Positions 25,226 through 40,831 of a stretch of 64,000 bases of DNA are shown here, piece after piece. This DNA is from Escherichia coli (GTDB lineage Bacteria; Pseudomonadota; Gammaproteobacteria; Enterobacterales; Enterobacteriaceae). Within the stretch, counting starts at the first letter, position 1. Each line of letters opens with the position of its first letter. The DNA is taken from the NCBI RefSeq assembly GCF_009931435.1, contig NZ_CP043414.1, one strand, 5' to 3'. The notes beneath the pieces are model-generated. The model was not told the origin of the DNA. It searched no databases and was given only the letters and a program-made list of their open reading frames with translations. The position numbers and the translations under genes were made by a program.

Positions 25226-26359
25226 TCAAAACGAAGCTAATTGACCCTGAATCCAGATTTGTTGCACATGCAGTCCGCTATTCAGCGCAACGACGCTGGC
25301 GCGTTTGCCCGGTTTAAGTGATCCCAGAACACCATCAACACCCAGCATACGCGCCGGATGCAGCGATGCCATATGGATGGCTTCCGCAGGCGTTACGCCC
25401 GTCAACTCGACCATGTTGCGCACTGCCGCATCGACAGACAGCGTACTGCCCGCCAGCCCACCGGACGCGGTACGGACAACGCCACCGTGCATCTGCACTT
25501 CTTCACCACATAACGTATAGCGACCATCCGGCATCCCGGCTGCCTGCATCGCGTCGGTGATGAGCACGATTCTCTCTTTCGCACAGCAACAACACAGCGA
25601 CATCGCCGCCGGATGAACATGATGCCCATCGGCTATCAGTTCCAGCCAGGCGCGCTTGTCCGTTAAACCCGCGCCAACCATTCCCGGTTCGCGGTGATGT
25701 AATCCTGTCATCCCGTTATAGCAATGCACCAGGCCGTCTGCGCCAGCATCAAATGCGGCGCGGGTTTGTTGCCAGGTTGCTGCGCTATGTCCCAGCATTA
25801 CCCGCACGTTCTGCTGTTTAAGATGACGAATGGCTTGTAACGCGCCCGTTTTTTCCGGTGCCAGCGCCACCACGCGCAAGGTATGCCGTGAAACAGCAAT
25901 CAATTGATCCAGCTCGGCAATTTCCAGCTCGCGAAACAGCTCCGGCGGATGTGCGCCTTTATTCTGCGGCGTGAAGTACGGCCCTTCGAGATAACTCCCC
26001 AGCACTTGCGCACCAGGTCCACCGCGCTGGCAGCGTAGCGCAATACGTTCCAGCGCCGCATGAATGGTATTAAGCGGCGCGGTTACGGTAGTCGGCAACC
26101 AACTGCCGACACCTTCCCGTGCCTTGTGCATTGCCAGCTTGTCGAGCGCATCCGGCGCGTCATCCATAACATCAACGCCCGCACCACCGTGTACATGGGT
26201 ATCGATATAAGCGGGGCAGAGCAGTTCCGCATCGCGTTCAGTCACGCCCACTGGAATCGGTTCGATTGCTGCGATTACACCGTCAGCAATACACAACTGA
26301 TGGTCATCGAGCCATCCCTCTTCAGTCAGCAGCCTTCTGGCGCGCAGAACGTGTGTCAT
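25226..26359 (-). CDS. agaA: N-acetylgalactosamine-6-phosphate deacetylase (NagA family), apparently full length
   Basis: ORF 25226..26380; start set at MTHVLRARRLL so that ATG overlaps agaF stop (ATGA); metal-binding H-x-H near N-terminus. Confidence 0.85.
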   Translation of the reverse strand: MTHVLRARRLLTEEGWLDDHQLCIADGVIAAIEPIPVGVTERDAELLCPAYIDTHVHGGAGVDVMDDAPDALDKLAMHKAREGVGSWLPTTVTAPLNTIHAALERIALRCQRGGPGAQVLGSYLEGPYFTPQNKGAHPPELFRELEIAELDQLIAVSRHTLRVVALAPEKTGALQAIRHLKQQNVRVMLGHSAATWQQTRAAFDAGADGLVHCYNGMTGLHHREPGMVGAGLTDKRAWLELIADGHHVHPAAMSLCCCCAKERIVLITDAMQAAGMPDGRYTLCGEEVQMHGGVVRTASGGLAGSTLSVDAAVRNMVELTGVTPAEAIHMASLHPARMLGVDGVLGSLKPGKRASVVALNSGLHVQQIWIQGQLASF

Positions 26360-26790
26360 ATTCCTTCCTCGACCGGACATTCTTCATGGCAGCGGCCTAA
26401 CTCGTCTACCAGACTGGTCAGCCCACGGTGTCCACACTCCAGCGCCTGCACACGGAATTCTTCACCGCTTAACCCTTCGCGCTCCAGCACCATTTCCAGT
26501 AACAGTTGCAAATTGGTGCCGGTGATCACTTCATAGCCCGGTTTTTGCATCGCCAGCGTTGAAGCCACGCGAAACGGTGTGCCGCCCAGCAAATCTGTCA
26601 GAAAAACAATGCCGTCTTCACAATCCAGTTTGGCAATGGCTTCTTCAAGCTGCGATGTAAGCAGCGCAGTGCTTGAGGTTTCCGGAAAATCAATGGCGAT
26701 AAACTGCGACTGCTCGCCGAGGATTTGCTTCATTGCTTTTTCCATGCCGCTGGCAAATCCGCCATGCCCTGTCAAAATAATACTTAACAT
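26356..26790 (-). CDS. agaF: PTS mannose-family EIIA component
   Basis: 144 aa; MLSIILTGHGGFASG... Confidence 0.85.
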   Translation of the reverse strand: MLSIILTGHGGFASGMEKAMKQILGEQSQFIAIDFPETSSTALLTSQLEEAIAKLDCEDGIVFLTDLLGGTPFRVASTLAMQKPGYEVITGTNLQLLLEMVLEREGLSGEEFRVQALECGHRGLTSLVDELGRCHEECPVEEGI

Positions 26791-26807
26791 CTAATACCTC
26801 ATTGTAT

Positions 26808-27692
26808 TTAAAGGAAATGACAGAATTTACCGACGATGCCAAGAACCACGGTAACCGCAATCAGGCGCAGCGGACTCCAGCCGCGGCGTACCAGCCAGAA
26901 CATGGTCAGGGTGTAGACCAGCGGTAAGAAGGCAGGCATCAGTTTGTCGATAACGTCAGCCTGCAGCTTAACCACTGCATCGCCCGCCGTGATTTCCAGC
27001 GTGGTGCTTAAACGAACATAGGTTGCCACCAGCGCGCCGATCACCGTCATCCCAACGATAGACGCTGCATGGCCGACTTTTTTGGTATTCGCTTTAATGA
27101 GTGGGATCGCCGCCACGCCCATGCGGTAAGCATAATGCGCCAGACCAAAACGCAGCCCCAGGTGTACCACGTTAAACAGCACAATAAACACGACTGCGCC
27201 AAGAATAGAGCCTTGCAATGCCAGACTGGCACCAATCCCGCCACAAATCGGCAGTAACGTTAGCCAGAACATGGCATCGCCAATCCCACCGAGCGGCGCA
27301 CCGACGGCAATTTTGGTGCTCTGAATACTGTTAACGTCCTGCTTAGAACGCTCCATCGCGAGGATAATGCCAATAACAAACGTCACCAGAAACGGATGGG
27401 TATTGAAGAAACCCATATGCCCCTTCATGGCGCGCGCCAGGTCGCGTTTATTAGTGTGGATCTTTTTCAGAGCAGGCAGCAGACCGTACAACCAGCCGGA
27501 AGCCTGCATACGTTCGTAGTTAAAAGACGCTTGTAACAGCATGGAACGCCAGGCGACGCGGTTGATATCTTTTTTTGTTAGCTCCGCGCCAATGCTCTGA
27601 TCTTCATACACGTTTTCATTGACGCCTGTCAGTAGTGTTTCTTCGTTTTCACTGACGTTCGGCAGGGTAGTTTGATTAGATGCCATCTTCAA
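26808..27692 (-). CDS. agaE: PTS mannose-family EIID component (N-acetylgalactosamine-specific)
   Basis: 294-aa membrane ORF, paralogous to agaD. Confidence 0.85.
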   Translation of the reverse strand: MKMASNQTTLPNVSENEETLLTGVNENVYEDQSIGAELTKKDINRVAWRSMLLQASFNYERMQASGWLYGLLPALKKIHTNKRDLARAMKGHMGFFNTHPFLVTFVIGIILAMERSKQDVNSIQSTKIAVGAPLGGIGDAMFWLTLLPICGGIGASLALQGSILGAVVFIVLFNVVHLGLRFGLAHYAYRMGVAAIPLIKANTKKVGHAASIVGMTVIGALVATYVRLSTTLEITAGDAVVKLQADVIDKLMPAFLPLVYTLTMFWLVRRGWSPLRLIAVTVVLGIVGKFCHFL

Positions 27693-28455
27693 ATTCCTCT
27701 TTCTGTGCCGCAGGTTGAGTCGGTTCAGGAGATTTACGCAGCAGGTCGATCAGCGCCATCGCCAGCGCGGCGGCAGCAATAGCCAGCACCGGTAACTTGA
27801 GCCAGGCGGCGGCAACGAAGCCCAGGATGAAGTAGGGGATATAGACGTTTTTCATCATGATTTTCAGCAGCACGGCAAAACCGATTGCTGGCATGATGCC
27901 GCCCGCGACGCCAAGGCCGTCGATTAACCGTTGCGGCAGGACATCAATGATGGTTTTTGCATGCTCCGCGCCGAAGTAGATAGGCAGGAAAGCGCAGAGA
28001 AAATAGAACGTGCCGAGTGCCAGCAATGCCAGATAGTTCACGCGTTCAATGCCGCGAGTATCGGCGTTCTCCGCCATCCGGTCGCAGCGGGACATCACGC
28101 CAGACATCACCGAGAACAGGAAGGTAATCCCCATCTGTACTGCGACAGCGAAAGGTACGGCGACACCGACCGCGACATCCGGTTTCACGCCAGTAGTAAT
28201 GGCAAACGCCGTGCCGACGATAGTTCCGATAATCACGTTAGGCGGCTGTGCGCCCGCCAGCGGTGCCAGCCCCATCCACACCAGTTCCAGCGTACCGCCG
28301 GTTAAAATACCGGTATGCAGATCGCCAAGCACCAACCCAACTAACGGGCCGAGGACCACCGGGCGGTGCATATGGGTTAGGCCGTTAAACATATCCAGGC
28401 CAGCGATAAAGGCGATAATGCCCAACGCAAATGCCTGCAACAGACTGATTTCCAT
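27676..28455 (-). CDS. agaW: PTS mannose-family EIIC component (N-acetylgalactosamine-specific), full length
   Basis: 259-aa membrane ORF, paralogous to agaC. Confidence 0.85.
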   Translation of the reverse strand: MEISLLQAFALGIIAFIAGLDMFNGLTHMHRPVVLGPLVGLVLGDLHTGILTGGTLELVWMGLAPLAGAQPPNVIIGTIVGTAFAITTGVKPDVAVGVAVPFAVAVQMGITFLFSVMSGVMSRCDRMAENADTRGIERVNYLALLALGTFYFLCAFLPIYFGAEHAKTIIDVLPQRLIDGLGVAGGIMPAIGFAVLLKIMMKNVYIPYFILGFVAAAWLKLPVLAIAAAALAMALIDLLRKSPEPTQPAAQKEEFEDGI

Positions 28456-28465
28456 GATGAATCCC

Positions 28466-28939
28466 TCAAAGTAATTTAAAGAGGTCCACAGCAGGCTCTG
28501 TCGGGACGCCCTGAACGAAGCATTCCACCCCAGCGGCTTTCAGGTCGTTAAATGCTGCGATATCGCCCGCATCCACAGAAACCGTTTTGGCGATTTGTTG
28601 CTTGCCATTGGCGTAGTGCATATTGCCAACGTTAATGCGATTCACCGGAACGCCACCTTTCACCAGCGTCAGGAAATCGGCAGGTGTTTTACAAACCAGC
28701 AGGATTTTCTGTCGATCGGCGGCGCGATGAATGTTGTCGATCACTTTTTGCAGCGTCCAGAAACGTACGGCGATCCCTTCTGCCAGCACCATTTCCATCA
28801 GGTTTTGTTGTACCGGATCTTCGGCAACCTCATCATTGGCTACCAGCACCAGATTTGCCCCCGCAAATCCGACCCACTGAACGCCGACCTGACCGTGAAT
28901 CAAGCGTTCATCAATCCGGCTTAAAACAATATTTGGCAT
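28466..28939 (-). CDS. agaV: PTS mannose-family EIIB component (N-acetylgalactosamine-specific), 157 aa
   Basis: ORF 28466..28975; start set at MPNIVLSRIDERLIHGQ. Confidence 0.85.
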   Translation of the reverse strand: MPNIVLSRIDERLIHGQVGVQWVGFAGANLVLVANDEVAEDPVQQNLMEMVLAEGIAVRFWTLQKVIDNIHRAADRQKILLVCKTPADFLTLVKGGVPVNRINVGNMHYANGKQQIAKTVSVDAGDIAAFNDLKAAGVECFVQGVPTEPAVDLFKLL

Positions 28940-28961
28940 AGCGTGTTCCTCTTTGTTTTGC

Positions 28962-30242
28962 TTATTGGCCTTCACAGGCTGTGTGGTACTGCGCCAGGAT
29001 GTCCTGAATATGGTTGATAATGAGTTCCCGTGGCGTTGGCTGCAGCTCGCCGGAGCGAACTTTCACGTATTGCAGCGGCAGGTACTGACTGATGAGCGGC
29101 AGCGGAATTGGCGCATCCGCCAGGTTACGAACCAGATGAGCGAAAGCGTCATCAATCTGGCTGTCCGGCCAGTAATAGCGCACGCGATCCGAGTAGCTAT
29201 AACCACGCGCCAGACGACGCGCGTTGCCGTCACCGTGGTAGTGGCTTTGCCAGTATTCCGGGCGGTCGAGCATCACGTTTTCCAGCACCTGACGCAGACC
29301 GGAACAGGCTTTTGCTGGCACCAGTTCTTCTTCAATCGCCGCCAGAGAGAACAGAGCTTCACGCAGGGCGAAGGTCAGCGCTGGGCCAACTTTCAGAATG
29401 GCAAAGTGGTCAATCACCAGCTGGCGCAGCGATTGCGGCGTTTGGTAATCGGTAGAGTGCGCTTCGAAAATCAGCGTTTCGTAGTTTTCGACCATCTGGC
29501 TTAAGGCGGTCGCTTTAGCTGGCTGATAATCAATAACGTTGGTGTGATCGAATTCGACGCCGGGTTGTACCACCAGAGCAATGATGCGTGGCCAGATGGC
29601 ATTCAGACCTTGCTTTTCAAAGGCGTGACGATGGGCTTCCAGCGTGGCGCGGGCGGCATCCGGCGTAGTGACCGCCAGCTCGCTTAAGGTTTCATGCGCG
29701 CCGCCAGGTACCGGCACTTCGGTACCAATGACATACACCAGATCGGCTTCGCCAAAGTGTTCACGGCAGGTTTCTTCCGCGACTTTAGCCAGTCGGGCGG
29801 CGCGTTCAGCCACGATGTCATCGGTTAAGGGAACCGGATCGTCCTGACAGGACATGCTGCAATCAAGGTGAATTTTTTTGAATCCTGCCGCCACGTAGCT
29901 TTTAATCAAATCATCGGCATTGGCCATCGCCTGAGCTGCAGGCAGGTTTTGCCAGCGGTTTGGCCCCAGATGATCGCCACCCAGAATCAACGCGTCTTGT
30001 GGGAAATTCAATGAGTCGGCGAGCTGACAAACAAAGCCGCGAAAATCGGCGGGTGTCATTCCGGTATAACCACCGAACTGGTCCACCTGATTGGATGTCG
30101 CTTCAATCAGTAACGGTGTTTGGTTTACACTGGCGTAGCGGATTGCAGCTTCCAGCACCAGCGGGTGTGCGGAACAAACGGCATAAATCCCATTTGTTTT
30201 GCCCTCTTTGTGCTGCCTCACCATTTCTGTCAGATGTTTCAC
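28962..30242 (-). CDS. kbaZ: tagatose-bisphosphate aldolase non-catalytic subunit KbaZ (426 aa, GTG start)
   Basis: ORF 28962..30308; start set at in-frame GTG ([10 protein letters not shown]...); the longer ATG-initiated form would run into the operator region. Confidence 0.8.
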
Positions 30243-30314
30243 TTTCCTCTCCAGTTCAGATTGCTGCGATATTAATCTTTCGTTTTGTTTCAGTTGATAC
30301 TGCGTCATGGTGAG

Positions 30315-30478
30315 ATAAAAATAAAACGAAAGATAATAGTTTTCTGATCTGATTCACAAAAGAAACATAATGAAAGTCACTGAAACGAGAGTAGCTTGCG
30401 TCAATGGGCAAGGTGGGCTTGCATTTGCTCAATAGAAAGGCGTAAATAGGCAAAACGAAATGAAACGAAAGTTTTACG
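30315..30478. promoter_or_regulatory. divergent kbaZ / agaR promoter region with AgaR operator-like motifs
   Basis: aaataaaacgaaag and aacgaaatgaaacgaaag motifs in the intergenic gap. Confidence 0.6.
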
Positions 30479-30490
30479 AAAGGACTTACT

Positions 30491-31300
30491 ATGAGTAATA
30501 CCGACGCTTCAGGCGAGAAGCGAGTGACAGGCACCAGCGAGCGACGAGAACAAATCATTCAGCGCCTGCGACAGCAAGGGAGTGTGCAGGTTAACGATCT
30601 GTCGGCATTGTATGGCGTATCTACTGTGACGATCCGCAACGATCTGGCTTTTCTGGAAAAGCAGGGGATCGCTGTGCGGGCCTATGGCGGCGCGTTGATC
30701 TGCGATAGCACGACGCCGTCAGTCGAGCCATCAGTGGAAGATAAAAGCGCGCTGAACACTGCGATGAAACGCAGCGTTGCGAAAGCTGCCGTTGAGTTGA
30801 TTCAGCCAGGTCATCGGGTGATCCTCGATTCCGGGACCACCACGTTTGAGATTGCTCGTCTGATGCGCAAGCACACCGACGTAATTGCGATGACCAATGG
30901 TATGAACGTAGCCAATGCACTGCTGGAAGCAGAAGGCGTTGAACTTCTTATGACCGGCGGGCATCTGCGGCGTCAGTCGCAATCTTTTTACGGCGATCAG
31001 GCTGAACAATCGCTACAAAATTACCACTTTGATATGCTTTTTCTCGGCGTAGATGCGATCGATCTGGAGCGCGGCGTCAGCACGCATAATGAAGATGAAG
31101 CCCGTTTAAACCGTCGGATGTGCGAAGTTGCGGAACGGATCATTGTGGTCACCGATTCCAGTAAGTTCAACCGTTCCAGTTTACATAAGATCATTGATAC
31201 TCAACGTATCGACATGATCATTGTTGATGAAGGCATTCCTGCGGATAGTCTGGAAGGCCTGCGAAAGGCTGGGGTTGAAGTGATTCTGGTCGGGGAGTGA
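30491..31300 (+). CDS. agaR: DeoR-family transcriptional repressor of the aga operons
   Basis: 269 aa; N-terminal HTH (…[17 protein letters not shown]…) and DeoR sugar-phosphate-binding C-domain. Confidence 0.9.
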
Positions 31301-31589
31301 GAAATGGCGCCCGTAGCTCAACACGGATGTGTTCGGCGGGCATTGTTCACTGACCTTTTACAGCCTGTTTTCTGCTCAAATTAGAAACTTCAGCAAAGGT
31401 AATGCAAATGCATTATTAACAGCAGAAAGCGCCAGAACCAACGAAAAAAGAGAGCATGTTTCCCATTTTGCGAGGCGCTTTCCAAATCACCCGCTCAGTC
31501 CCCTCGCGTTGCAGTGCTAAAAGCACTATTTTGCAAATTTGTGACCTTCTTCACTCTCCCAAAAGGCGGTGATCTCACGGTGGGGATCC

Positions 31590-31815
31590 ACTTTCTGCTT
31601 TCGCTTTTCTGCCGTTAGCACTCGCTATTTCGGCATCTCTTCTTTTCACTTTTTCAGTTTGTCATTTTCATTTGCGGTCAACCGAAAGTTCTGGAGTCGA
31701 TTTTTCCAGGTTTCAACGCCGTTGTCGCGTTCACAAATTCACTTCTTTTCTTCTGATGTAATGCATTCAAAAGAAAATGAAAGCTGCAAAATGCAAGAAT
31801 GCAACGAAATACTTT
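31590..31815. promoter_or_regulatory. long leader of the second DeoR gene, rich in TTTC/GAAA repeats (candidate operator array)
   Basis: ctttctgctttcgcttttctgcc, tcttttcactttttcagtttgtcattttcatttgcgg, gaaaatgaaagctg; motif class resembles the aga operators. Confidence 0.4.
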
Positions 31816-31832
31816 TTCAGGGAGCGATAAAC

Positions 31833-32603
31833 ATGCTAGATAGCCTAAGACGCCGCGAACAAATCATTGATTTGTTATGTGCCCAGGGAAGCGTACGCGT
31901 TGAGCCGCTCAGCATCCATTTTGGTGTCTCATCGGTCACGATCCGCAATGACTTACGGTATCTGGAGCAAAAAGGTTGCGTCATGCGTTCCTATGGCGGT
32001 GCCGTGTTGAATCAACACTTTGCGCTCGACAGACCCTTGCAGGATAAAGATCGCCTTAATCGTGATGTTAAAGTGCGAATTGCCGAAAAAGCGGCCAGTT
32101 TTGTCAAAGATGGCGATACATTAATTATCGATTCTGGTTCAACGACCACGCTAATTCCCGCTTCGCTCAAAGGGCGTCGGGATTTAGTCGTCATGACGAA
32201 TGCCTTGAATATCGCCTGGGAAATGGCCAGTTTTGAACGGGTGGATGTTATGATCCTTGGTGGAAATGTTCGCCAGAGCGTCTACTCCCTGTATGGGCCT
32301 TCGGCAGAACAACAACTCCGGCAGTATCGCTTTGATAAGCTGTTTTTGGGCGTGGACGGCTTTTGCCTTGAAGCAGGGATTACCACACCACATCCGGGTG
32401 AGGCACATCTGAACCAGGTGATGTGCCAGGTTGCGCAGGAAATTACTGTTGTCGCGGACTCCAGTAAATTTGGCCGCAAAAGCTTCTGTATGATCGGTGA
32501 AGTGAGCGAGATAGATCGACTGATTACCGATAGCGGTATTCCGGAGAATTACAAAGCAGCATTAACGCAAATGGGTGTGGAAGTTGTGATTGCTGATGAG
32601 TGA
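31833..32603 (+). CDS. DeoR-family transcriptional regulator, AgaR paralogue (256 aa)
   Basis: ORF 31569..32603; start set at MLDSLRRREQIIDLL preceded by GGAG; alignable by eye with AgaR along its length (…VTIRNDL..LE.KG…YGGA…DSG.TT…FLGVD…). Confidence 0.8.
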   Translation: MLDSLRRREQIIDLLCAQGSVRVEPLSIHFGVSSVTIRNDLRYLEQKGCVMRSYGGAVLNQHFALDRPLQDKDRLNRDVKVRIAEKAASFVKDGDTLIIDSGSTTTLIPASLKGRRDLVVMTNALNIAWEMASFERVDVMILGGNVRQSVYSLYGPSAEQQLRQYRFDKLFLGVDGFCLEAGITTPHPGEAHLNQVMCQVAQEITVVADSSKFGRKSFCMIGEVSEIDRLITDSGIPENYKAALTQMGVEVVIADE

Positions 32604-32604
32604 G

Positions 32605-32642
32605 AAAATGTGGCTGGAGATAAACGTCGCCAGCCACATTAC
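32605..32642. terminator. bidirectional hairpin terminator between convergent DeoR gene and ROK kinase gene
   Basis: aatgtggctgg...ccagccacatt inverted repeat. Confidence 0.6.
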
Positions 32643-32647
32643 GTTAT

Positions 32648-33559
32648 TCAGGTTGCAAGTTCGATTTGCAGCAACGCCGCGCCTCGTACACCGCTCGTTG
32701 CTCCGTGAATCGCAGAAAATACGCGCGCAGGTTCCAGTCCAGGAAGAAGATAACGCGTCATAGCTTTCGGCAATAACGTGTAAATTTCTTTGAAGTTAGA
32801 CACACCGCCGCCAAGAACAAATGCATCTACGTCGAGAATATGCTGCAACTGTGCCAGCGTACAACCAACCATATCTATCCAGGCGCTAATGGTGGTGATG
32901 GCACTGGGAACGCCACGTTGATGATTTTCTAACAATGTCTCCATAGTGATTTGCTCACCGCTGAAATGCTTATGTAACCAGAGCAAGCCAGGACCGGACT
33001 GGTAGCGTTCCAGGCACCCTTGCAAACCGCAGCCGCATTGTAATTCAGGCAGGTTATAGCGCCGCGTAAATGTCGCCGGGAGCGGTAAATGGCCAAACTC
33101 GCAGGCCATACGGTTACGGCCACGGTACAACTGGCCATCAATAACTAATCCCCCGCCCATACCCGTGCCGATAATCGCGCCAAAGATCCGACTATATTGA
33201 CGAGCTTGATCGGTATGCGCTTCTGATAGGGCGAAGCAGCAGCAGTCATTATCCATTATTACCGGGCGGTTAAGGCGATTTGCCAGATCGGTTAACACCT
33301 GGCGTCCGGTCAGGCAGGGAACGTTAGAAGACAACAGTTTACCGGTGTGCCGATCCATAACGCCGGGCATCCCGATACCTATTTTGCCTTGCGTACCCGT
33401 GGCCCAGTCAGCGGTATCAATCAGAGACACAAATGTGGATAGAAAAAGCGCGTAATCCTGAACAGGCGTAGCTACCCGCTTGCGCCAGCAAATTTGTAAA
33501 TCCTGATCAAAGGCGACTATCTCTGTTTTGGTTCCACCAATATCAACACCGTAAAACAT
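32648..33559 (-). CDS. ROK-family sugar kinase (NagK-like N-acetylhexosamine kinase candidate), 303 aa
   Basis: N-terminal GVDIGGTK ATP motif; ROK zinc motif CGCGLQGCLERY; same length as the NagK family. Confidence 0.8.
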   Translation of the reverse strand: MFYGVDIGGTKTEIVAFDQDLQICWRKRVATPVQDYALFLSTFVSLIDTADWATGTQGKIGIGMPGVMDRHTGKLLSSNVPCLTGRQVLTDLANRLNRPVIMDNDCCCFALSEAHTDQARQYSRIFGAIIGTGMGGGLVIDGQLYRGRNRMACEFGHLPLPATFTRRYNLPELQCGCGLQGCLERYQSGPGLLWLHKHFSGEQITMETLLENHQRGVPSAITTISAWIDMVGCTLAQLQHILDVDAFVLGGGVSNFKEIYTLLPKAMTRYLLPGLEPARVFSAIHGATSGVRGAALLQIELAT

Positions 33560-33577
33560 CGCTCATCTCCTTTGGTT

Positions 33578-34834
33578 TCACAGCACAACCAGGGTATTTT
33601 CCTTGCGAGCGCGTTCGGCGGCAAAGACCATTAAATGACTTTCGAGCGATTCATCTGGTCCTGAAAGGATCATCGCTCGATCGTCAGCCATCACGGCATG
33701 GATAAAGCTGTCCATCAGATAGTAATCACCACCACCGTGCCCTCCCATTTGGGTGTGAGTGCCTGCGTTTTTCTCTTCAACGGTGTAAATAGTTTCCTGG
33801 TCGGTGAGAAAATCAAAACACCGAATGGTGTTGCCATCGCCTTCCAGATAACCTTTCGAACCGAAAACTCGGGTTTTGCGATCCTCCATTTTCGTAAAGG
33901 CTGTCATTGTAAAAGTGACGCTCTGCTGATGCGCAAACTGCATGTTTACCACTTGATGATCAACAACATCGTTATCGCAGCAATAAACACAGCGACCATA
34001 GGGGCCGTCACGCAGGGCCTGACGAATATTCTCTTCAGTAGGATTTGGTGTTAACACGTGGCGAAAGTGAAACGTACATTTATGGGCTTCGCCAGCATAA
34101 ATTTTGCATGCGGACCACGGGCAGGTCGCTTCTGCCTGGCAATCGAGACAGCGTTCGGCTGCGCCTTCAGGTTGGTTTTGTTTTACAAAATGGTTGAGCC
34201 CGCCAAATGAGCTAACGGTTTTACAGTTGTCTCCCATGATGTAGCGGATCCAGTCCAGATCGTGGCAGGACTTTTGTAACAACATAAATGATGATTCAGC
34301 CTCGTTGCGCCAGTTACCACGCACAAAAGAGTGTGCCTGGTGCCAGTAACCGACGGGTTCGAGATGCTGCATACTGATAATGTCGCCAATGATGCCGCTG
34401 TCGAGTAAGGATTTGAGTTTTTGTGTATATCGGGTGTAACGAAGAACGTGTGCGACGGCTAATAAGACATTATTGCGTTTGACGGCATCAATGATAATGC
34501 GGCAATCGTGCTCTGTTGGCGCGAGCGGTTTTTCCAACAGAATGTGATAACCGAGATCGGCAAAAGCGACGGCCGGATCTCTATGCATATTGTCTTGCGT
34601 ACAAATAAGTACAGCATCAGCCATTTTTGGCCGAGCAGCAGCCTCTTTCCAGTTGCTAAAAATATTATCTGTCGGGATCGTATGCCGGGACACAACTTGC
34701 TCGCGGTAAGCCTCTCTAGGTTCAGCAACACCTACCACTTGCATTCTGTCCGGATGCTCAAGGGCATAGCGGGAATATATTTCTCCACGTGCGCCTGCAC
34801 CTATTACTAAAACAGTGACTTTATTTTTACTCAT
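33578..34834 (-). CDS. Gfo/Idh/MocA-family NAD(P)-dependent oxidoreductase with Cys-rich insert
   Basis: N-terminal Rossmann VLVIGAGARG and EKP motif (LLEKPLA); internal Cys cluster CLDCQAEATCPWSACK ... CVYCCD. Confidence 0.75.
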   Translation of the reverse strand: MSKNKVTVLVIGAGARGEIYSRYALEHPDRMQVVGVAEPREAYREQVVSRHTIPTDNIFSNWKEAAARPKMADAVLICTQDNMHRDPAVAFADLGYHILLEKPLAPTEHDCRIIIDAVKRNNVLLAVAHVLRYTRYTQKLKSLLDSGIIGDIISMQHLEPVGYWHQAHSFVRGNWRNEAESSFMLLQKSCHDLDWIRYIMGDNCKTVSSFGGLNHFVKQNQPEGAAERCLDCQAEATCPWSACKIYAGEAHKCTFHFRHVLTPNPTEENIRQALRDGPYGRCVYCCDNDVVDHQVVNMQFAHQQSVTFTMTAFTKMEDRKTRVFGSKGYLEGDGNTIRCFDFLTDQETIYTVEEKNAGTHTQMGGHGGGDYYLMDSFIHAVMADDRAMILSGPDESLESHLMVFAAERARKENTLVVL

Positions 34835-34876
34835 ATAAAGAAATACCTTTCTGATAAATTCATCTTAATTGCTACG

Positions 34877-35635
34877 TTATAAATTACGAAAACTAACAAG
34901 ATGAAATCCGTGTTTTTCAATCGCATATTTGAGTGACGGTGTAGTCAGAACCGTAAGTTCTTCCAGCCGTTGATAGCAGTAACTGCTCGACATTAAGTGG
35001 TTATCTACAAATCCAGGGTGACACATAATTTCCAGCGATTTTTCATCACGTTTTATGGCGCTATCGAGGAGTGATAAAAAAAAGTCTTCTGAAATATTAT
35101 TATCGTAGAAATTACTGCTGAATCCCTCACTACTTTTGGCATCCAGCGAATCGATTTTTTTCTCTCGCAGGACAGAATGGTCTATACGTAATGGTAAATT
35201 TTTCTCACGCGCGAACCGCGCGACAACGGGATAAACCTGCGGGAGCATATGAACGCTGTGATGGCTGTCTAAATGGGTGGGCTCCCGTTTAAATACATCA
35301 ATAAAACGTTGATATTGAGAATTCAGTTCCTGTTCAATTTCACCCGTGTTTAATTGCCCTTGCTCCGCGACATCCCAGATCCATTTACCTAATTGGCCTG
35401 CGCGTACCAGCGAAGGCATATCCGTTAAGGCAGCGCCATAGCTCAAAACAAAATGTAACCCGACGCCGAGCTGTGGGGTTTCGGCACTTAAAGAGGCAGC
35501 ATGATCAATTGCCGGAGCATTCATCATCGCAGTTGTTGAGCGAACGACACCATTTCGTACTGCCTCGATAATTCCATAATTAATACCTTTACTTAGTCCA
35601 AAGTCATCCGCATTCACAATTAATAAGCGTTGCAT
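34877..35635 (-). CDS. YdjC/ChbG-family carbohydrate deacetylase
   Basis: MQRLLIVNADDFGLSKGINYGIIEA... and HLDSHH metal-site motif typical of the ChbG/YdjC family. Confidence 0.85.
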   Translation of the reverse strand: MQRLLIVNADDFGLSKGINYGIIEAVRNGVVRSTTAMMNAPAIDHAASLSAETPQLGVGLHFVLSYGAALTDMPSLVRAGQLGKWIWDVAEQGQLNTGEIEQELNSQYQRFIDVFKREPTHLDSHHSVHMLPQVYPVVARFAREKNLPLRIDHSVLREKKIDSLDAKSSEGFSSNFYDNNISEDFFLSLLDSAIKRDEKSLEIMCHPGFVDNHLMSSSYCYQRLEELTVLTTPSLKYAIEKHGFHLVSFRNL

Positions 35636-35647
35636 AAGGCGTCCTTG

Positions 35648-37000
35648 TTATTGATGAGATTGGGTAAGTTCAGCAATGGTGCTGGAAAATTGAGGCAGAT
35701 GTTTTTTATGGGCAATGATCAGTTCACGTACTAATTTTTCAGCGTCGTTATCCGAGGTCATTAGCGGGTTAAGGCACAGAGCCAGCAGCGTATCGTTATA
35801 GTTACCACTTATTGCCGCCCGGGCTGCCGCGATCTCAAAACATTTGATTGAATGAATGAGCCCCAGTACATTTTCGTCAAAATGAGTGAGACGCGGGTGG
35901 GGGGTAACACCGTTATTCCCCAGAATGCAGGTCATTTCAACGGTCCAGTCTTCAGGGATATTTTTTACACTGCCCTTGTGTGGAATATTAACGTAGTGTT
36001 CTGTTTGCGTGTCATTATAAATTGCATTAATAACGGCACAGGCTGCATCTGAATAATACGCACCACCACGCAGCTCCAGTTCTTCAGGTTTTGTATTTAG
36101 TTCTGGGTCCTTATACAGCTCAAATAATTTTTTCTCTAATGCCTGCACGACTTGTGCACGAACGCCATTTTTATAAAATTCCCCCATCTCAATAGCGAGC
36201 ATTTCTTTATGTTTAAAATAGTAACGTAAGTAAGCACAGGGCAGGAGATTAAGTGCCCGAATTAAATTAGGATTGAAGGTTAAACTGTCAATATTTTTGA
36301 CGGTACTTCCTTCAAGCAAACCTTCAACGACGCCATCGAGCAATTCAGCAAAACGTGATTGTCCATTGACCCATACGTCTTTAAGAAAGACCATATGATT
36401 TAAGCCAAATATGTCTATTGAAAGATCATCGTCCGCGCCAAGTTTTAGGGCATTGCAAACGAAGCTCTTCATCCCAATAGGGACATTACAGACACCGATA
36501 AAACGTTTAAATTGGGTATGGCGGTACACGGCTTCAGTAACCATCCCGGCAGGATTGGTAAAATTAATAATCCAGGCATCAGGGCAAAGTTCCTCAACAT
36601 CTTTGATAATATCAAAAACTACTGGAATGGTTCGTAACCCGTTGAATAAACCGCCCGCGCCATTGGTTTCTTGCCCGAGATATCCCTGACTTAGTGGAAT
36701 CAACTCATCCATTTCCCGAGCTTTTAATTGCCCGACCCGAAATTGTGTGGTGACAAAGTGCGCGCCCTGTAATGCAGCGCGACGGTCAAGTGTTTTCACT
36801 ATTTTTAACGGAATGCCAGCTTTTATCACCATCCGCTGACAAAGGTCGAAAATAATGTCCAGCTTTTCTTTGCCTTCTTCAATATCAACTAACCATAATT
36901 CACTGACCGGTAATTCATCGTAGCGTTTTATGAATCCTTCAAGGAGTTCTGGTGTATAGCTACTGCCACCGCCAATAGTAACGATTTTTAAGTTTTTCAT
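35648..37000 (-). CDS. glycoside hydrolase family 4 NAD+/Mn2+-dependent 6-phospho-glycosidase (ChbF-like), 450 aa
   Basis: N-terminal KIVTIGGGSSYTPEL dinucleotide-binding signature and GH4-type core (…FINFTNPAG…CNVPIGM…). Confidence 0.85.
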   Translation of the reverse strand: MKNLKIVTIGGGSSYTPELLEGFIKRYDELPVSELWLVDIEEGKEKLDIIFDLCQRMVIKAGIPLKIVKTLDRRAALQGAHFVTTQFRVGQLKAREMDELIPLSQGYLGQETNGAGGLFNGLRTIPVVFDIIKDVEELCPDAWIINFTNPAGMVTEAVYRHTQFKRFIGVCNVPIGMKSFVCNALKLGADDDLSIDIFGLNHMVFLKDVWVNGQSRFAELLDGVVEGLLEGSTVKNIDSLTFNPNLIRALNLLPCAYLRYYFKHKEMLAIEMGEFYKNGVRAQVVQALEKKLFELYKDPELNTKPEELELRGGAYYSDAACAVINAIYNDTQTEHYVNIPHKGSVKNIPEDWTVEMTCILGNNGVTPHPRLTHFDENVLGLIHSIKCFEIAAARAAISGNYNDTLLALCLNPLMTSDNDAEKLVRELIIAHKKHLPQFSSTIAELTQSHQ

Positions 37001-37077
37001 GTTACTTCCATACTCAATATTAAATTGACTTGTGATGCCATGGTTTTATCTAAACGCTGGCATGATGAAGTGTGCTA

Positions 37078-38439
37078 TTAAAACTTTAATGCATTGGCAA
37101 TGTCTTCTTCGCTTTCTTGTTTAATTATTTCAACTTGTGCTTTGTTTGAGATAATGACAAAGGGAAGATAAACCATTGTGGCAACACCTAAGTTAAAGAG
37201 CGCCAGGAGTAATCCAGCAATGCTACCATTCGAGCTAAAGAACGCATTGAGTCCAGGAGGCATGGTCCAGGGGGCAATATTTGTTGATGGCGGAATAATA
37301 CCCATGTTATAGGCGATTAAGGTAATCCCGGCGAGAATAGGTTGAATCATCACAAACGGGATTAACATAATGGGGTTCATAATGATCGGCAAACCAAATA
37401 AAATAGGTTCGTTGATATTAAAGATACCAGAAGGTAACGCTAATTTAGCAACCTGACGATAATCTTCCCGGCGTGACGCAATGAAAATGGCGAAAATGAG
37501 TCCCAGCGTTGCCCCTGTTCCACCGAGGAACACGTAAGCGTCAAGCATTGGCCCGGTCCAGAAATGGAAGGTTTTTCCTGCTTCCAGTGCCGCTTGTACT
37601 GAACCATATTGTGTATAGGTGGCGATATTCTCCAGTCCCCACGGACCCAACGTGCTGCTTTGCAACGCGGTTAATACTAAGCCGCCGTGGATACCAAAGA
37701 ACCATAACAGGGAATTAAAGACAACGAATGTCCAGCCAACAATACCGCTCATTGACGTTAATGGCGTAGCCAGTGAGGTGATAATGACCTGATGGAAATT
37801 GGTGCCATATATCGACAATATCCCAGACAAACTACCCATAATTAACAGGATGATAAACCCGGGCACCATTGCTGAGAATGAGCGTGATACTGCGGTCGGA
37901 ACACTCGCGGGCAACCGAATCACCCAATTGCGGCGGATAATAAAAGCGAAAATTTCCGCTACAACTAATCCAATGATCATACCAGACAGAATATTGGCGC
38001 CGCCTAACCAGTTTGCACCAATGACATTAGCGGTTTCTCCTGCCTTGAAGGGGGTGACAGTCATAAACGCTGCGACAGAGAGTAAGCCAACGGATAACGA
38101 ATCAACTTTCCGTTCTTCGGCCAACCCCATCCCAATAAAAAAGGGGGTCATGAGTGACATAATGCCCAGCGTGCCATGATAAGCACTGTCACCGACGACG
38201 GTGAAGGCGCTTAAGGTTTTTATGGTCGATGGTTCCAGTCGGACGCCTAATGAATAAAAAAAGGAGCCTTCGCCAAAATCTAAAAAAACGCTATTAATGA
38301 GGACAAATAACGTACCGGCTAACGTTAATGGCATCATACGGATAAAACCGTTTTTTATTGCATTGACGTGAGGTTGTTTCCCTAATTTAACTGCAAAAGG
38401 AAGAATGAGTTTTTCAAGTAACGCCATCACTCCGGGCAT
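37078..38439 (-). CDS. PTS lactose/cellobiose-family EIIC component (ChbC-like)
   Basis: 453-aa polytopic membrane ORF with the lactose/cellobiose-family EIIC motif …[14 protein letters not shown]…. Confidence 0.85.
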
Positions 38440-38508
38440 AAAAATATCCTTATATACCGATTAATGTATCACTGCGACTTTGGTTTTATTAATATCCTGT
38501 TGCTATGG

Positions 38509-38826
38509 TTACTTTTGCTCTTTTTTTATTATGGCGATAGCTGATTTTAGAACACCTAAGCCATCAATTTTTCCATATAACATTGAATCAATAACTTCCA
38601 CTGGCTTTCCTGGTAATAAGCTTTGGATCTCTGATTGCATGTAAGCAATTTGAGGTCCCAATAATATAACATCGGCTTCCGGCCCTTTCTCTGCGGCAAC
38701 AGATTCGGAGAATGCTTCGATAATTACTGGCACATCATATTTTATCGCCTGCACTTTCATTTTTGACACCAGCAGTGATGTTGACATTCCCGCTGAACAA
38801 AATAAGTATATTTTTTTCTTTTCCAT
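38509..38826 (-). CDS. PTS lactose/cellobiose-family EIIB component (ChbB-like), 105 aa
   Basis: ORF 38509..39042; start set at [23 protein letters not shown] (phospho-Cys motif), preceded by GGAG. Confidence 0.8.
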
Positions 38827-39059
38827 AGGGACTCCAGATATATTACGTAATAATATATTTGTCATGCCATGAATGGCATATGAGGCGACTTTAATTAAAA
38901 AGGCACGGATGTTTATATTGATTTCCTGAATGTCGTCTTTTGGTATTAATCTCAAAAATTTCAGGAGCCATTGAATAATCTGGTTTATAGGATTGAATGT
39001 CAAGAGAGTGAAATTGTGGGCGTGTTGTAATAAAAATAGCACGGCTTTCGGTAGGTTTC

Positions 39060-39165
39060 TTTTTTAGCGGAATGAAAAGTACAGGCAAAATGGTAATTGA
39101 ATAAATTAACGTTTTTTCAATAGATTACGTTTTTTTCTGCCTACAGGAATGAAAAAAACAACAAT
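39060..39165 (-). promoter_or_regulatory. putative promoter/operator region of the EIIB-led operon with two GGAATGAAAA repeats
   Basis: gcggaatgaaaagtacagg and acaggaatgaaaaaaacaac about 75 bp apart in AT-rich DNA upstream of the EIIB start. Confidence 0.35.
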
Positions 39166-39211
39166 CTAAAAATACTTTAGATATGTGAGAGTTATCACTT
39201 ACTTTTCGTGG

Positions 39212-39245
39212 GGAAAACGGGGAAACACAGTCTCCCCGTTTTCCG
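39212..39245 (-). terminator. garD rho-independent terminator
   Basis: aaacgggga...tccccgttt hairpin immediately downstream of garD stop. Confidence 0.65.
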
Positions 39246-39259
39246 TTCATGCAAGGCCG

Positions 39260-40831
39260 TCAAGTCACCGGTGCCGGGTTAAACACCGCCAGCTGGTTAT
39301 GCAGTCCCCATTGATCTGAGAAGGTTTTCTTCTTCCCGCTGGCGACGTCGAGAATAAAATGGAACAATTTCCAGCCCACCTCTTCAATAGTTTCTTCGCC
39401 GGTAGCGATGGTGCCCGCATTAATATCCATTAAATCAAACCAGCGGTTCGCCAGCTCGGTGCGGGTCGCCATTTTAATGACGGGTACCGCCATCAGGCCG
39501 TACGGCGTGCCGCGACCGGTCGTAAACACTTGCACGGTAATCCCTGATGCCACCTGTTGCGTGCCACAGACAAAATCGCTGGCTGGCGTCGCGGCGTAAA
39601 TTAATCCGCGTTTAGTCGGGCGTTGACCGGGCGATAGCACTTCAACAATTGCGCTTTTACCCGATTTAGCAATGGAGCCGAGAGCCTTCTCCACTACGTT
39701 TGCCAGACCGCCTTTCTTGTTGCCCGGAGAAGGGTTGGCGCTGCGGTCGGTTTTTCCCATATTGAGATAGTTATCGTACCACTCCATCTCCTCCAGCAGC
39801 CGTTTGCCGACCTCTTCGTTCACTGCGCGTGGTGTCAGCAGATGGATCGCGTCACGCACTTCTGTGACTTCTGAAAACATCACCGTTGCGCCGCAGCGCA
39901 CCAGTAGATCAGACGCATACCCAACCGCCGGGTTTGCCGTTACGCCAGAAAACGCATCGCTGCCACCGCACTGCATGCCGACAACCAGTTCTGAAGCCGG
40001 ACAGGTTTCTCGCTGACGTTGATTCAGTTTTTGTAGATGGCGTTCGGCGACCTGCAAAATATCCTCGACCATGGACTGAAAACCGACATGCTTTTCATCC
40101 TGCAAACTGACAATGCTGGCGCTTTCTACTGGAATAGCTTGCACATCATCCGTTCCAGTCAGCAGGCGCTCAGGCTGCAACTTTTCACAACCCAGACCAA
40201 TCACCATTACTTCGCCGCCAAAGTTAGGGTTCAGCGAAATATTGTGAATGGTACGAATAGGCACAACTGCCGCCGGTGCGTTAATCGCCACGCCACAACC
40301 GTACAAATGATTCAGCCCCACCACGCCATCGACGTTCGGGTATTTCGGTAGCAGATCGCGTTCAATGATTTTTACTACATAGTCCACCACGCCTGCCACA
40401 CAGTGGACGCTGGTGGTGATGCCGAGCAGGTTTTTGGTGCCCACGCTGCCATCGGCATTGCGATAGCCCTCAAAGGTGTATCCTTCCAGTGGCGGTAAGG
40501 GGGCCGGGACTTTAGTTGCCAGTGGCAGCGTGTGTAACGGTGGCGCTTCCGGTAGTACAACCATTGATTCGTCGATCCAGCTTCCGCGTGGGATTGCGCG
40601 CACGGCGTAACCAATCACTTCACCATAACGAATAATTTCACCATTAGCCGGAATGTCCAGCAATGCGACTTTATGCCCCTGGGGAATATGTTCAATTAAT
40701 TCCAGCCCATCCGGAAAACGCGTTCCTGCTTTCAGGCCATTATCATTAACAATAATTGCCACATTATCTGTGTCGTGAACTTTTATATAAAACGCAGTTG
40801 GCGTTTCTTGTCTGATTTCGATGTTGGCCAT
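39260..40831 (-). CDS. garD: galactarate dehydratase (L-threo-3-deoxy-hexulosonate-forming)
   Basis: 523 aa; [28 protein letters not shown]...; divergent from garPLRK. Confidence 0.9.

Follow-up and report, generated by a model that had tools for sequence, protein, structure and literature searches.

Described relatives of the target enzyme

The canonical catalytic triad of the Gfo/Idh/MocA family consists of the Lys of an EKP motif, which contacts the nicotinamide, together with the Asp and His of a DxxxH motif (PMC7535918). Among solved structures, the best sequence matches to the family of the protein studied here (hereafter the target) were NanOx and YjhC (NanY), which are 2,7-anhydro-Neu5Ac oxidoreductases (6Z3B/6Z3C, 6O15) and matched the family profile across residues 3-215 with E-values of 1.5e-21 and 5e-21. 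NanOx uses NAD as a cofactor in a reaction without net redox change, and NanOx/YjhC are encoded by accessory genes beside a cluster for sugar catabolism that has a transporter of its own (PMC7535918).

Glycosidases of the same fold include the NAD+-dependent α-N-acetylgalactosaminidases of GH109, represented by NagA of E. meningoseptica (2IXA/2IXB) and AmGH109A of Akkermansia (6T2B), and the NAD+-dependent sulfoquinovosidases of GH188 (SqgA, 8QC2-8QC8). GH109 enzymes are reported to be metal-independent (PMC10755693), and a catalytic role for their GGHGG loop is attributed in PMC10755693 to Teze et al. 2020. GH177 and GH179 are also listed as NAD-dependent CAZy families (PMC10755693). GH4 enzymes (ChbF, BglT) are likewise NAD+-dependent glycosidases acting through oxidation and elimination, with a Mn2+ bound by Cys and His (PMC10755693). 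Their fold is lactate/malate dehydrogenase-like and not homologous to the target, and their metal site is catalytic and lies in the active site, whereas the target has four cysteines (Cys4) in an insert. A full-text literature search found no paper on a Gfo/Idh/MocA family with this Cys4 insert.

Genomic setting in E. coli

The window was a 64,000-nt stretch of Escherichia coli contig NZ_CP043414.1 (assembly GCF_009931435.1), in which the target belonged to an island next to the resident aga cluster. The following features were located in this region:

25226..31300: resident aga cluster, with agaA, agaF, agaE, agaW, agaV and kbaZ on the minus strand and agaR on the plus strand (ORFs and RefSeq names)
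31833..32603, plus strand: AgaR2, a second AgaR-type DeoR repressor, convergent with the operon (NCBIfam AgaR, RefSeq)
32648..33559, minus strand: ROK-family sugar kinase, directly downstream of the target (NCBIfam profile)
33578..34834, minus strand: target gene, encoding a 418-aa Gfo/Idh/MocA-family protein (ORF and translation, Pfam, RefSeq annotation)
34877..35635, minus strand: ChbG-type chitooligosaccharide deacetylase (NCBIfam NF002559, 351 bits, cut-off 227)
35648..37000, minus strand: GH4 6-phospho-beta-glucosidase sharing about 75% identity with E. coli ChbF/CelF (PDB and tblastn)
37078..38439, minus strand: chitobiose-type PTS EIIC (ChbC; NCBIfam NF007634, 800 bits, cut-off 760)
38509..38826, minus strand: PTS EIIB of the ChbB type, first gene of the operon (NCBIfam NF007796, 187 bits; RefSeq; translation)

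The target ORF ran from ATG to stop over exactly 33578-34834, confirming the 418-aa ORF of the original prediction, which had named no strand. Its product corresponded to the RefSeq label 'Gfo/Idh/MocA family protein' (WP_176263857-like, from a 99.6% identical island). The GH4 neighbour matched PDB entries 5c3m and 1s6y at E-values of about 1e-153 and celF at 74-75% identity by tblastn. The island lacked an EIIA gene. The ROK kinase was closest to NagK (306 bits, under the cut-off of 380) and is proposed to be the kinase of the released hexosamine. In the resident cluster, agaW, agaV, kbaZ and agaR were named by RefSeq, whereas agaA, agaF and agaE were named from the Pfam domains of their counterparts in locus L087 and from the layout of the E. 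coli aga cluster. The cluster is presumed to be the sink for GalNAc-6-P or GalN-6-P. AgaR2 scored 365 bits on the NCBIfam AgaR model (cut-off 260). CTTTC/GAAAG sites were enriched upstream of agaR2 (31591-31779; 4 in 250 nt, 99th percentile). The 436 nt preceding the PTS operon contained a single site and were not enriched, so control of the operon by AgaR2 was unsupported.

Fold, cofactor motifs and catalytic residues

The target matched the Pfam models PF01408, PF02894 and PF22725 (GFO_IDH_MocA N, C and C3), PF01408 covering an N-terminal Rossmann domain with GxGxxG and PF02894/PF22725 an alpha/beta domain at the C-terminus. The strings VLVIGAGARG and EKP, on which family membership had first been proposed, were recovered by translation at residues 8-17 and 101-103, respectively. 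Four features of the cofactor and catalytic regions were placed on the minus strand:

34784..34801: Rossmann dinucleotide motif GAGARG, residues 12-17 (translation and alignment A1)
34721-34723: Glu38, within a VAEP segment that follows predicted strand 2 (alignment A1)
34526..34534: EKP motif, E101-K102-P103 (invariant in alignment A1)
34262..34273: K188-S-C-H191 motif (HMMER alignments to YjhC, alignment A1)

In alignment A1, G14, R16, G17 and E38 were invariant and G12 nearly so. From what is known of the family, Glu38 suggests a preference for NAD over NADP. The conservation set comprised 113 family representatives with pairwise identity of at most 50%, among which K102 was present in 110 and both H191 and D192 in all 113; K188 was invariant in alignment A1. 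The alignments to YjhC identify H191 as the predicted catalytic His of the Gfo/Idh/MocA family. Of the canonical triad, the EKP Lys and H191 were retained and the Asp was replaced, the motif reading K188-S-C-H191. The loss of this Asp is common to the target and NanOx, and both NanOx/YjhC and the target combine EKP with a catalytic His preceded by a basic residue at His-3, the Lys of the target aligning in register with the HxxH of NanOx/YjhC. The motif itself differs (HxxH in NanOx/YjhC, KxxH in the target), and so does the genomic context, which is sialic acid (nan) for NanOx/YjhC and aga, chb and ROK genes for the target; neither HxxH nor a nan context was found here. The match to NanOx/YjhC stopped at about residue 212-215, and these proteins possess neither the loop nor the insert described below. 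The target is predicted to be cytoplasmic; its sequence opens directly with the Rossmann strand.

An insert with four invariant cysteines

The 124-position C3 Pfam model was spread over residues 138-331, which indicates a genuine insert some 70-80 residues long. The insert and its cysteines lay on the minus strand as follows:

33959..34198: family-specific insert of about 80 residues, residues 213-292, between strands 1 and 2 of the C-terminal sheet
34121..34150: C229-x2-C232-x5-C238(-P), carrying the first three invariant cysteines (alignments and translation)
33977..33991: C282, the fourth invariant cysteine, and C286 (alignments and translation)

The target contained 13 cysteines in 418 residues, and the two cysteine-rich strings singled out by the original prediction were present (CLDCQAEATCPWSACK at residues 229-244 and CVYCCD at 282-287). 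C229, C238 and C282 occurred in 113 of the 113 representatives and C232 in 112, with a family-wide spacing of C-x(2,3)-C-x(5,8)-C-P. Conservation was lower for C190 (87%), C111 (79%) and C286 (63%), while C243, C253, C285 and C339 were unconserved; on this alignment C243, C253 and C285 are read as strain noise. The reported cysteine cluster thus held in part: four cysteines were invariant, and half of those listed (the SACK and KCT cysteines and the middle one of CVYCC) were not conserved. The same alignment answers the objection, raised with the prediction itself, that the cysteines might not be conserved in homologues, which did not apply to these four. C282 and C286 sat in a conserved YGRCVYxCDNDVVD segment running into the next strand, and C229, C232, C238 and C282 would supply the four ligands of a putative Cys4 metal site.

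The four invariant cysteines may form a Zn or Fe-S site. Their C-x2-C-x5-C-P arrangement with a distant fourth Cys resembles the [4Fe-4S] C-x2-C-x5-C type, with a spacing that varies across the family; presumably it also resembles the [4Fe-4S] motifs of WhiB-like proteins and EndoIII/MutY and the Cys4 structural Zn motif of alcohol dehydrogenase. The insert (residues 213-292) gave no match to PDB structures or Pfam even at E<=10, and the family insert showed no significant homology to known metal-binding domains in either resource, so that a Gfo/Idh/MocA protein with an atypical Cys site, as originally described, was borne out. In the AF2 model, pLDDT was 70-88 across the insert. A few inserts of the family, each as a single sequence, gave weak Pfam matches to Fer4_20 and WhiB, a hint only.

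A GH109-type loop in the C-terminal half

One further motif was recognised from conservation and from a local alignment to 6t2b:

33725..33745, minus strand: GGHGGGD loop, residues 364-370

H366 was present in 106 of the 113 representatives (94%) and D370 in 96%, and the loop aligned locally with the GGHGGMD catalytic loop of the Akkermansia GH109 enzyme (6t2b); the GGHGG feature with its His was near-invariant in the target family. Its low pLDDT suggests that the modelled loop may be mobile. Searched against the PDB, the C-terminal family profile retrieved GH188 and GH109 only, both of them NAD-dependent glycosidases. Together with the loop, this lends support to the 'unusual glycoside cleavage' that had been put forward as one possible activity.

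Overall similarity to GH109 was nevertheless limited. The family profile matched 2ixa at 1e-7 and 6t2b at 6e-6 in the N-terminal region only, Glyco_hydro_109_C (PF21252) gave no match to the target at E<=10, and hhalign against GH109 fragments (gathered with a 154-aa piece of AmGH109A and at most 268 aa long) covered only residues 6-155, i.e. the N-terminal domain. GH109 has EVP where the target family has EKP, and lacks the 80-residue Cys4 insert; some of its relatives carry a TAT signal (PF10518), which the target, beginning at the Rossmann strand, does not. In the GH109 fragments, E223, Y226 and H228 were invariant within E-A-A-Y-I-H, Y226 being the general-base Tyr of AmGH109A. E159-PVG-Y163-W-H165 of the target is similarly placed after the IGD strand, outside the hhalign span, with Y163 replaced by F or W in some members. 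Similarity to GH188 was weak: SqgA has AGAHHG in place of GGHGGG and no Cys4 insert, and the GH188 substrate (a sulfosugar) and gene context differ from those of the target.

Gene neighbourhoods across the family

The PTS phospho-glycoside operon originally described was confirmed as to its GH4, ChbC/ChbB-like PTS, ChbG, ROK and AgaR-like genes, but the setting proved rare (three of 5426 complete E. coli genomes) and atypical of the family. At the same garD|agaR site, orthologues 81-84% identical to the target followed ABC transporter genes, which lay in the place taken by ChbB/ChbC, GH4 and ChbG in the E. coli island. The pairing of the target with GH4 and PTS genes, to which functional meaning had been given, is therefore better read as a recent swap.

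The recurring partners of the family were a hexosamine kinase and the GalNAc/tagatose (aga) pathway. The kinases were of four unrelated kinds (ROK, BadF-type, GHMP and NahK), a ROK kinase adjoining the Gfo gene in nine of 66 usable loci, and triads of Gfo, nucleotidyltransferase and NahK genes also occurred. The ROK partner is a 6-kinase and NahK a 1-kinase; the BadF-type enzyme is probably a 6-kinase and the GHMP enzyme probably a 1-kinase. This coupling to both 6-kinases and 1-kinases implies that the target should act on an unphosphorylated sugar or glycoside, before the kinase, and makes the suggested oxidation step on a phospho-sugar unlikely.

Operons linking a family gene to aga genes and an ABC transporter were found in Citrobacter, Serratia, Vibrio, Chloroflexi and Deinococcus. 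CUT1 ABC transporters carry mostly oligosaccharides, and no other glycosidase was seen in the CUT1 operons of the family. The idea of the Gfo enzyme as the sole glycosidase of its operon was weakened by GH4, GH116 and GH29 neighbours, and was retained with the enzyme as a second glycosidase acting in sequence. Gene contexts in Thorarchaeota and the PVC phyla gave nothing informative on function.

Proposed function and alternative explanations

From the observed fold, motifs, conservation and gene neighbourhoods, we infer the type of reaction, the substrate and the metal, and tentatively propose, with slightly less than even confidence, that the target is a cytoplasmic NAD+-assisted glycosidase that frees GalN(Ac) and carries a putative Cys4 Zn/Fe-S site. 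The amino sugar of the substrate is probably N-acetylgalactosamine. Modelled on GH109, GH188 and NanOx/YjhC, the reaction would start with transient oxidation of a ring hydroxyl by bound NAD+, after which a base would abstract the adjacent C-H, the glycosidic (or anhydro) bond would be broken by elimination, water would re-add and NADH would hand back the hydride, giving net hydrolysis with zero net redox change. Catalysis would fall to H191, K102 of EKP and H366 of the GGHGGGD loop. The four invariant cysteines would bind a structural Zn2+ or a [4Fe-4S] cluster that pins the insert against YGRCVYxCDNDVVD and so shapes the substrate pocket. The free hexosamine produced, with GalNAc or GalN the most likely, would be phosphorylated by the adjacent ROK kinase and enter the neighbouring aga/tagatose pathway with its AgaR-type repressor. 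In the E. coli island, a beta-linked HexNAc oligosaccharide would be imported and phosphorylated by ChbB/ChbC, its phosphorylated non-reducing residue removed by ChbG and GH4, and the remaining GalN(Ac) glycoside cleaved by the Gfo enzyme. In E. coli the island is a rare accessory trait, probably for using host or microbial HexNAc glycans.

It is rather unlikely that the target is instead a conventional NAD(P)-dependent oxidoreductase of sugars, or a keto-intermediate epimerase, acting on a free amino sugar, with a purely structural Cys4 site, converting an imported epimer or oxidised form (e.g. another HexNAc or hexosamine) into GalN(Ac) or GlcNAc accepted by the kinase. Such an enzyme would leave the GH109-type loop and the selective retrieval of GH188/GH109 unexplained and would lack the canonical Asp of the dehydrogenase triad, and the family operons without another glycosidase would be at odds with transporters that are mostly oligosaccharide carriers. 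To our knowledge, no natural amino sugar requires such a conversion for entry into the aga pathway.

Opening of an intramolecular anhydro bond, in the manner of NanOx or levoglucosan dehydrogenase, would turn an anhydro-hexosamine (e.g. 1,6-anhydro-HexNAc) into a free sugar for the kinase. YjhC and RgNanOx are the best sequence relatives with structures, the His-3 register is as in NanOx, a sub-threshold match to levoglucosan dehydrogenase was obtained, and the Gfo-nucleotidyltransferase-NahK triads look like amino-sugar recycling routes. This activity is all the same improbable, given that the similarity to NanOx, which has neither GGHGG loop nor insert, ends at about residue 212, that aga and CUT1 contexts favour glycosides over anhydro-monosaccharides, and that neither anhydro-GalNAc nor anhydro-GalN is known to us as an abundant natural compound. 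Oxidation of a phospho-sugar or phospho-glycoside made by the PTS and GH4 enzymes, with the Cys cluster as a redox-active Fe-S centre, fits the co-transcription with PTS, GH4 and ChbG genes here and the existence of sugar-phosphate dehydrogenases such as NtdC within the Gfo/Idh/MocA family, but is highly improbable, as the 81-84% orthologues sit behind ABC transporters delivering unphosphorylated sugars, partner kinases acting at C6 or C1 depending on the locus make a single phospho-substrate implausible, neither a flavin nor a second redox partner is present, and coordination by four Cys would leave no iron site open.

Were the target an NAD+-assisted glycosidase, a function would be assigned to a large family now labelled only 'Gfo/Idh/MocA family oxidoreductase', placing a redox-assisted cytoplasmic glycosidase where GalNAc/GalN catabolism and UDP-HexNAc salvage begin and supplying the 'missing glycosidase' step of aga-linked ABC-transporter operons. 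It would also bring a metal-bearing member to the few families of NAD-dependent glycosidases, although the target family may already belong to GH177 or GH179. The stronger claim, that the family is an unrecognised class of NAD+-dependent glycosidases spanning bacteria, Asgard archaea and eukaryotes, the first Cys4-metal-dependent one on the Gfo/Idh/MocA fold, providing cells generally with a cytoplasmic route to free GalNAc/GalN for salvage or catabolism and possibly with a [4Fe-4S] cluster as its Cys4 centre, is speculative and on balance unlikely. GH109 enzymes are those used for blood-group A conversion, and under the glycosidase reading members of the target family would be candidate glycan-editing enzymes.

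Distribution and conservation of the family

At E<1e-30, the family comprised about 890 clusters (50% identity). Identities to the target were 50-60% across many bacterial phyla and Thorarchaeota, and by these comparisons the family appears as an uncharacterised, very widespread and highly conserved Gfo/Idh/MocA subfamily. Eukaryotic members occurred in fish, reptiles, invertebrates, oomycetes and Naegleria, animal and protist proteins (predicted structures) matching the target at 40-54% identity, with about 50% between E. coli and fish. Compared with the second E. coli island type, the dN/dS of the target gene was 0.105.

The gene and its cysteine-rich insert

33578-34834, minus strand: open reading frame from ATG to stop, 418 aa, encoding a Gfo/Idh/MocA-family protein (the Gfo protein)

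Pfam assigned to this protein an N-terminal Gfo/Idh/MocA Rossmann domain (E 6e-19) and two C-terminal models. Residues 138-331 span a C3 model of just 124 positions, and the C-terminal domain therefore contains an insertion of about 70-80 residues. None of the curated NCBIfam models reached its cut-off, and a 99.6% identical protein is named merely 'Gfo/Idh/MocA family protein' in RefSeq.

Cysteine conservation was assessed in an alignment of 25 homologues from many phyla, and then among 113 full-length representatives of 50%-identity clusters. C229, C238 and C282 were present in all 113 representatives and C232 in 112, while C190 (87%), C111 (79%) and C286 (63%) were partially conserved and C243 (the 'SACK' cysteine), C253, C285 and C339 were not conserved. 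The family-wide pattern was R-C-x(2,3)-C-x(5,8)-C-P ... Y-G-R-C-V-Y-x-(C)-D-N-D-V-V-D. The original prediction had given the exact coordinates and motifs that were all found (VLVIGAGARG, EKP, CLDCQAEATCPWSACK and CVYCCD), on what proved to be the minus strand. The cysteine cluster that it proposed as a metal or Fe-S site is a real feature with four invariant or nearly invariant positions, but about half of the cysteines listed (e.g. C243 and C285) lie outside it. Four such thiols in a loop-rich insert of a cytoplasmic protein most simply indicate a metal site, and their near-invariance among the 113 representatives strengthens that idea, making a bound metal plausible. This Cys4 site would then serve a structural role, its metal fixing the insert beside the conserved YGRCVYxCDNDVVD segment.

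Catalytic motifs and relation to known families

Judged by its sequence, the protein belongs to the Gfo/Idh/MocA superfamily and has an atypical set of catalytic residues. The Rossmann motif, Glu38 and EKP were invariant in the 25-homologue alignment, Glu38 being consistent with NAD rather than NADP. H191 aligned with the family catalytic His, the canonical Asp was absent, and a Lys (K188) occupied the His-3 position, a spacing in register with the HxxH motif of RgNanOx and YjhC, whose residues are all essential (PMC7535918). These two were also the best solved relatives by family profile (YjhC, 1.5e-21; RgNanOx, 5e-21; next match, 2e-16), and both use NAD+ as a true cofactor in opening a glycosidic (anhydro) linkage (PMC7535918). 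Identity as a NanOx was rejected, as the motif is KxxH instead of HxxH and nan context is absent.

The most telling mechanistic clue is a near-invariant (G/S)-G-H-G-G-G-D loop at residues 364-370. In GH109 N-acetylgalactosaminidases the catalytic His sits in a 'conserved GGHGG loop' (Teze et al. 2020, as cited in PMC10755693), so that the GH109 hallmark loop is also present here. When the whole PDB was searched (E<=10) with a profile of residues 288-418, the only matches were GH188 sulfoquinovosidases (0.053 and 0.16), one obvious repeat-protein artefact and the Akkermansia GH109, in which TKMGGHGGMDFVMLSRI aligned with TQMGGHGGGDYYLMDSF of the window. The unusual glycoside cleavage suggested in the original prediction gains plausibility from the shared loop and these C-terminal matches.

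GH109 membership by sequence was rejected, as there is no PF21252 match and EKP stands where GH109 has EVP; hhalign against GH109 fragments gave homology for the N-terminal domain alone. Two further families, GH177 and GH179, are listed by CAZy as NAD-dependent (PMC10755693), and the present family may already be classified in one of them. Overall, the protein is best described as a new, putatively metal-bearing variant among NAD-dependent glycosidases and oxidoreductases, with both activity and metal content predicted.

Distribution of the family

A word-indexed search yielded at least 8000 matches, the best 120 of which were each 57-100% identical and came from Enterobacterales, Vibrionaceae, Lentisphaerae, Anaerolineae, Latescibacterota and Sumerlaeota. 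An exhaustive search gave 890 representative clusters (E<=1e-30). With one genome per species, loci of 50-63% identity were found in Planctomycetota, Verrucomicrobia, Kiritimatiellae, Chloroflexi, Gemmatimonadetes, Deinococcales, Actinomycetes and Cloacimonadota, and repeatedly in Thorarchaeota, many MAGs of which (L018-L030, L044) carried homologues of 51-57% identity. Foldseek against AFDB50 added eukaryotic matches (40-54% identity; TM up to 0.88 when full-length) from Saprolegnia (oomycetes), several fishes (zebrafish-type 'zgc:154075'), a turtle, an annelid, crabs, a coral and Naegleria. Such strong conservation across three domains points to precisely constrained chemistry. The eukaryotic and Thorarchaeota homologues may stem from contamination, transfer or vertical descent. 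A full-text literature search found no paper on the family, which is uncharacterised and unusually widespread.

Genomic neighbourhoods

In the window, the gene lies fifth in an operon of six co-oriented genes (minus strand), within an island (31300-39260) situated between garD and agaR and directly adjoining the aga operon:

ChbB-like EIIB
ChbC-like EIIC
GH4, about 75% identical to ChbF
ChbG
Gfo gene
ROK kinase
second AgaR-type repressor gene (agaR2), after the ROK kinase and convergent with the operon

Orthologues of 81-84% identity in Citrobacter werkmanii, one Enterobacteriaceae isolate and two metagenomic contigs shared the garD|agaR position, again with ROK and AgaR2 downstream. Upstream, a CUT1-type ABC transporter (SBP, two permeases, MalK-type ATPase) replaced PTS, GH4 and ChbG, which argues against the PTS-centred framing of the original prediction. 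More distant loci were organized as follows:

Serratia, Vibrio, Photobacterium: ABC-Gfo-ROK-DeoR with AgaS, KbaY or KbaZ; in Serratia, also a divergent GH123
Ktedonobacter: DeoR | Gfo-ROK-AgaS-PfkB-LacD
Deinococcales MAG (L045): DeoR-ABC-PfkB-BadF-type kinase-AgaS-Gfo
Deinococcus alpinitundrae (L059): ABC-AgaS-KbaY-PfkB-Gfo
Separate clade: Gfo, a nucleotidyltransferase (PDB 3pnn-like), then a kinase scoring 292 bits against N-acetylhexosamine 1-kinase NahK
Delongbacteria, Cloacimonadota: GlmU-N-type uridylyltransferase and GHMP galactokinase-like kinase adjoining Gfo

A sugar kinase, from one of four unrelated families, occurred within five genes in 14 of the 66 usable loci, and tagatose/aga pathway genes in 11. 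The partner that recurs is a kinase acting on free hexosamine or N-acetylhexosamine, whose product most often feeds GalNAc/GalN catabolism. NahK phosphorylates C1, as the GHMP kinase probably does, while the ROK and BadF-type kinases, resembling hexosamine 6-kinases and feeding AgaS, presumably phosphorylate C6.

Other neighbours included Pfam-confirmed GH29 fucosidases (five loci) and, in Anaerolineae, GH114. The separate clade's triad was conserved (L090 7282-9337; L004, L091-L093), its ~305-aa second member scoring 307 bits against 3pnn ('conserved domain protein', function unknown), a family that may thus comprise HexNAc-1-P nucleotidyltransferases. M20-family peptidase genes were found a few genes away in five Chloroflexi/PVC loci (L005/L006 6621-7931, L017, L052, L071), directly adjoining in L005, L006 and L052, and a Trueperaceae MAG (L035 8103-15669) had an Opp/Dpp-type peptide ABC system around the gene; these neighbours hint at glyco-amino acids or glycopeptides as possible substrates in some cases. 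Citrobacter youngae (L012 5572-11266) carried a 58%-identical paralogue in an integrase-flanked island, directly after a GPH symporter and GH116, which is a third kind of transporter/glycosidase front end.

Predicted function

We tentatively read the protein as a cytoplasmic glycosidase assisted by NAD+, sharing its mechanistic type with GH109, GH188 and NanOx. It would cleave an imported glycoside by transient oxidation, aglycone elimination, hydration and re-reduction, setting free GalN(Ac) or, in a wider reading, a hexosamine. The adjacent kinase would then either phosphorylate this sugar, which enters the aga pathway, or activate it at C1 for UDP-sugar salvage. The enzyme would be the sole glycosidase in ABC-type operons; in the E. 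coli island its turn would come once ChbG and GH4 had taken off a phosphorylated non-reducing residue, which would give all six genes a role. The fold, motifs, conservation and gene neighbourhoods behind this reading were observed, while the reaction, the substrate and the metal are predictions.

Since the partner kinases target C1 in some loci and presumably C6 in others, the step catalysed by the enzyme should come ahead of phosphorylation, with an unphosphorylated sugar or glycoside as substrate. A plain dehydrogenase or epimerase that uses a free amino sugar would likewise precede the kinase; this alternative is less likely, though serious, and leaves the GGHGGGD loop unexplained. An anhydro-sugar-opening enzyme, NanOx- or levoglucosan dehydrogenase-like, would match the closest solved relatives and appears improbable, as NanOx lacks the GGHGG loop and the insert. 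The oxidation of a phospho-sugar originally proposed for this PTS operon is very improbable, as both kinase types place the step before phosphorylation.

Evolution and regulation of the E. coli island

The island is rare: of 5426 complete E. coli genomes, only three carried it. Compared with strain GF4-3, whose island is 92% identical, the Gfo gene had a dN/dS of 0.105 and is therefore maintained by selection. Between the two E. coli versions of the island (window 32648-38439 and L089), dS varied very unevenly among genes (Gfo 0.60, ChbG 0.36, ROK 0.23, IIC 0.20, GH4 0.13), a pattern that suggests mosaicism or recombination around the Gfo gene. The garD|agaR interval of the window lacked prlF-yhaV, with an 84-nt prlF-like remnant (~31336-31420, ~91% identical), while in GF4-3 the island coexists with prlF and a yhaV pseudogene.

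The island encodes EIIB and EIIC without EIIA or a ChbR-type regulator, and its PTS would have to borrow an EIIA encoded elsewhere, e.g. ChbA. The true EIIB product has 105 aa (start 38826; 177 aa, 38509-39042, in the mechanical ORF list), and agaR2 starts at 31833 in RefSeq (over-extended in that list to GTG 31569, 31569-32603). Upstream of agaR2 (31591-31779), four AgaR-type CTTTC/GAAAG pentamers were found in 250 nt, the third-densest region in the window, ranking after the aga promoter; a single pentamer lay upstream of the PTS operon (38824-39259).
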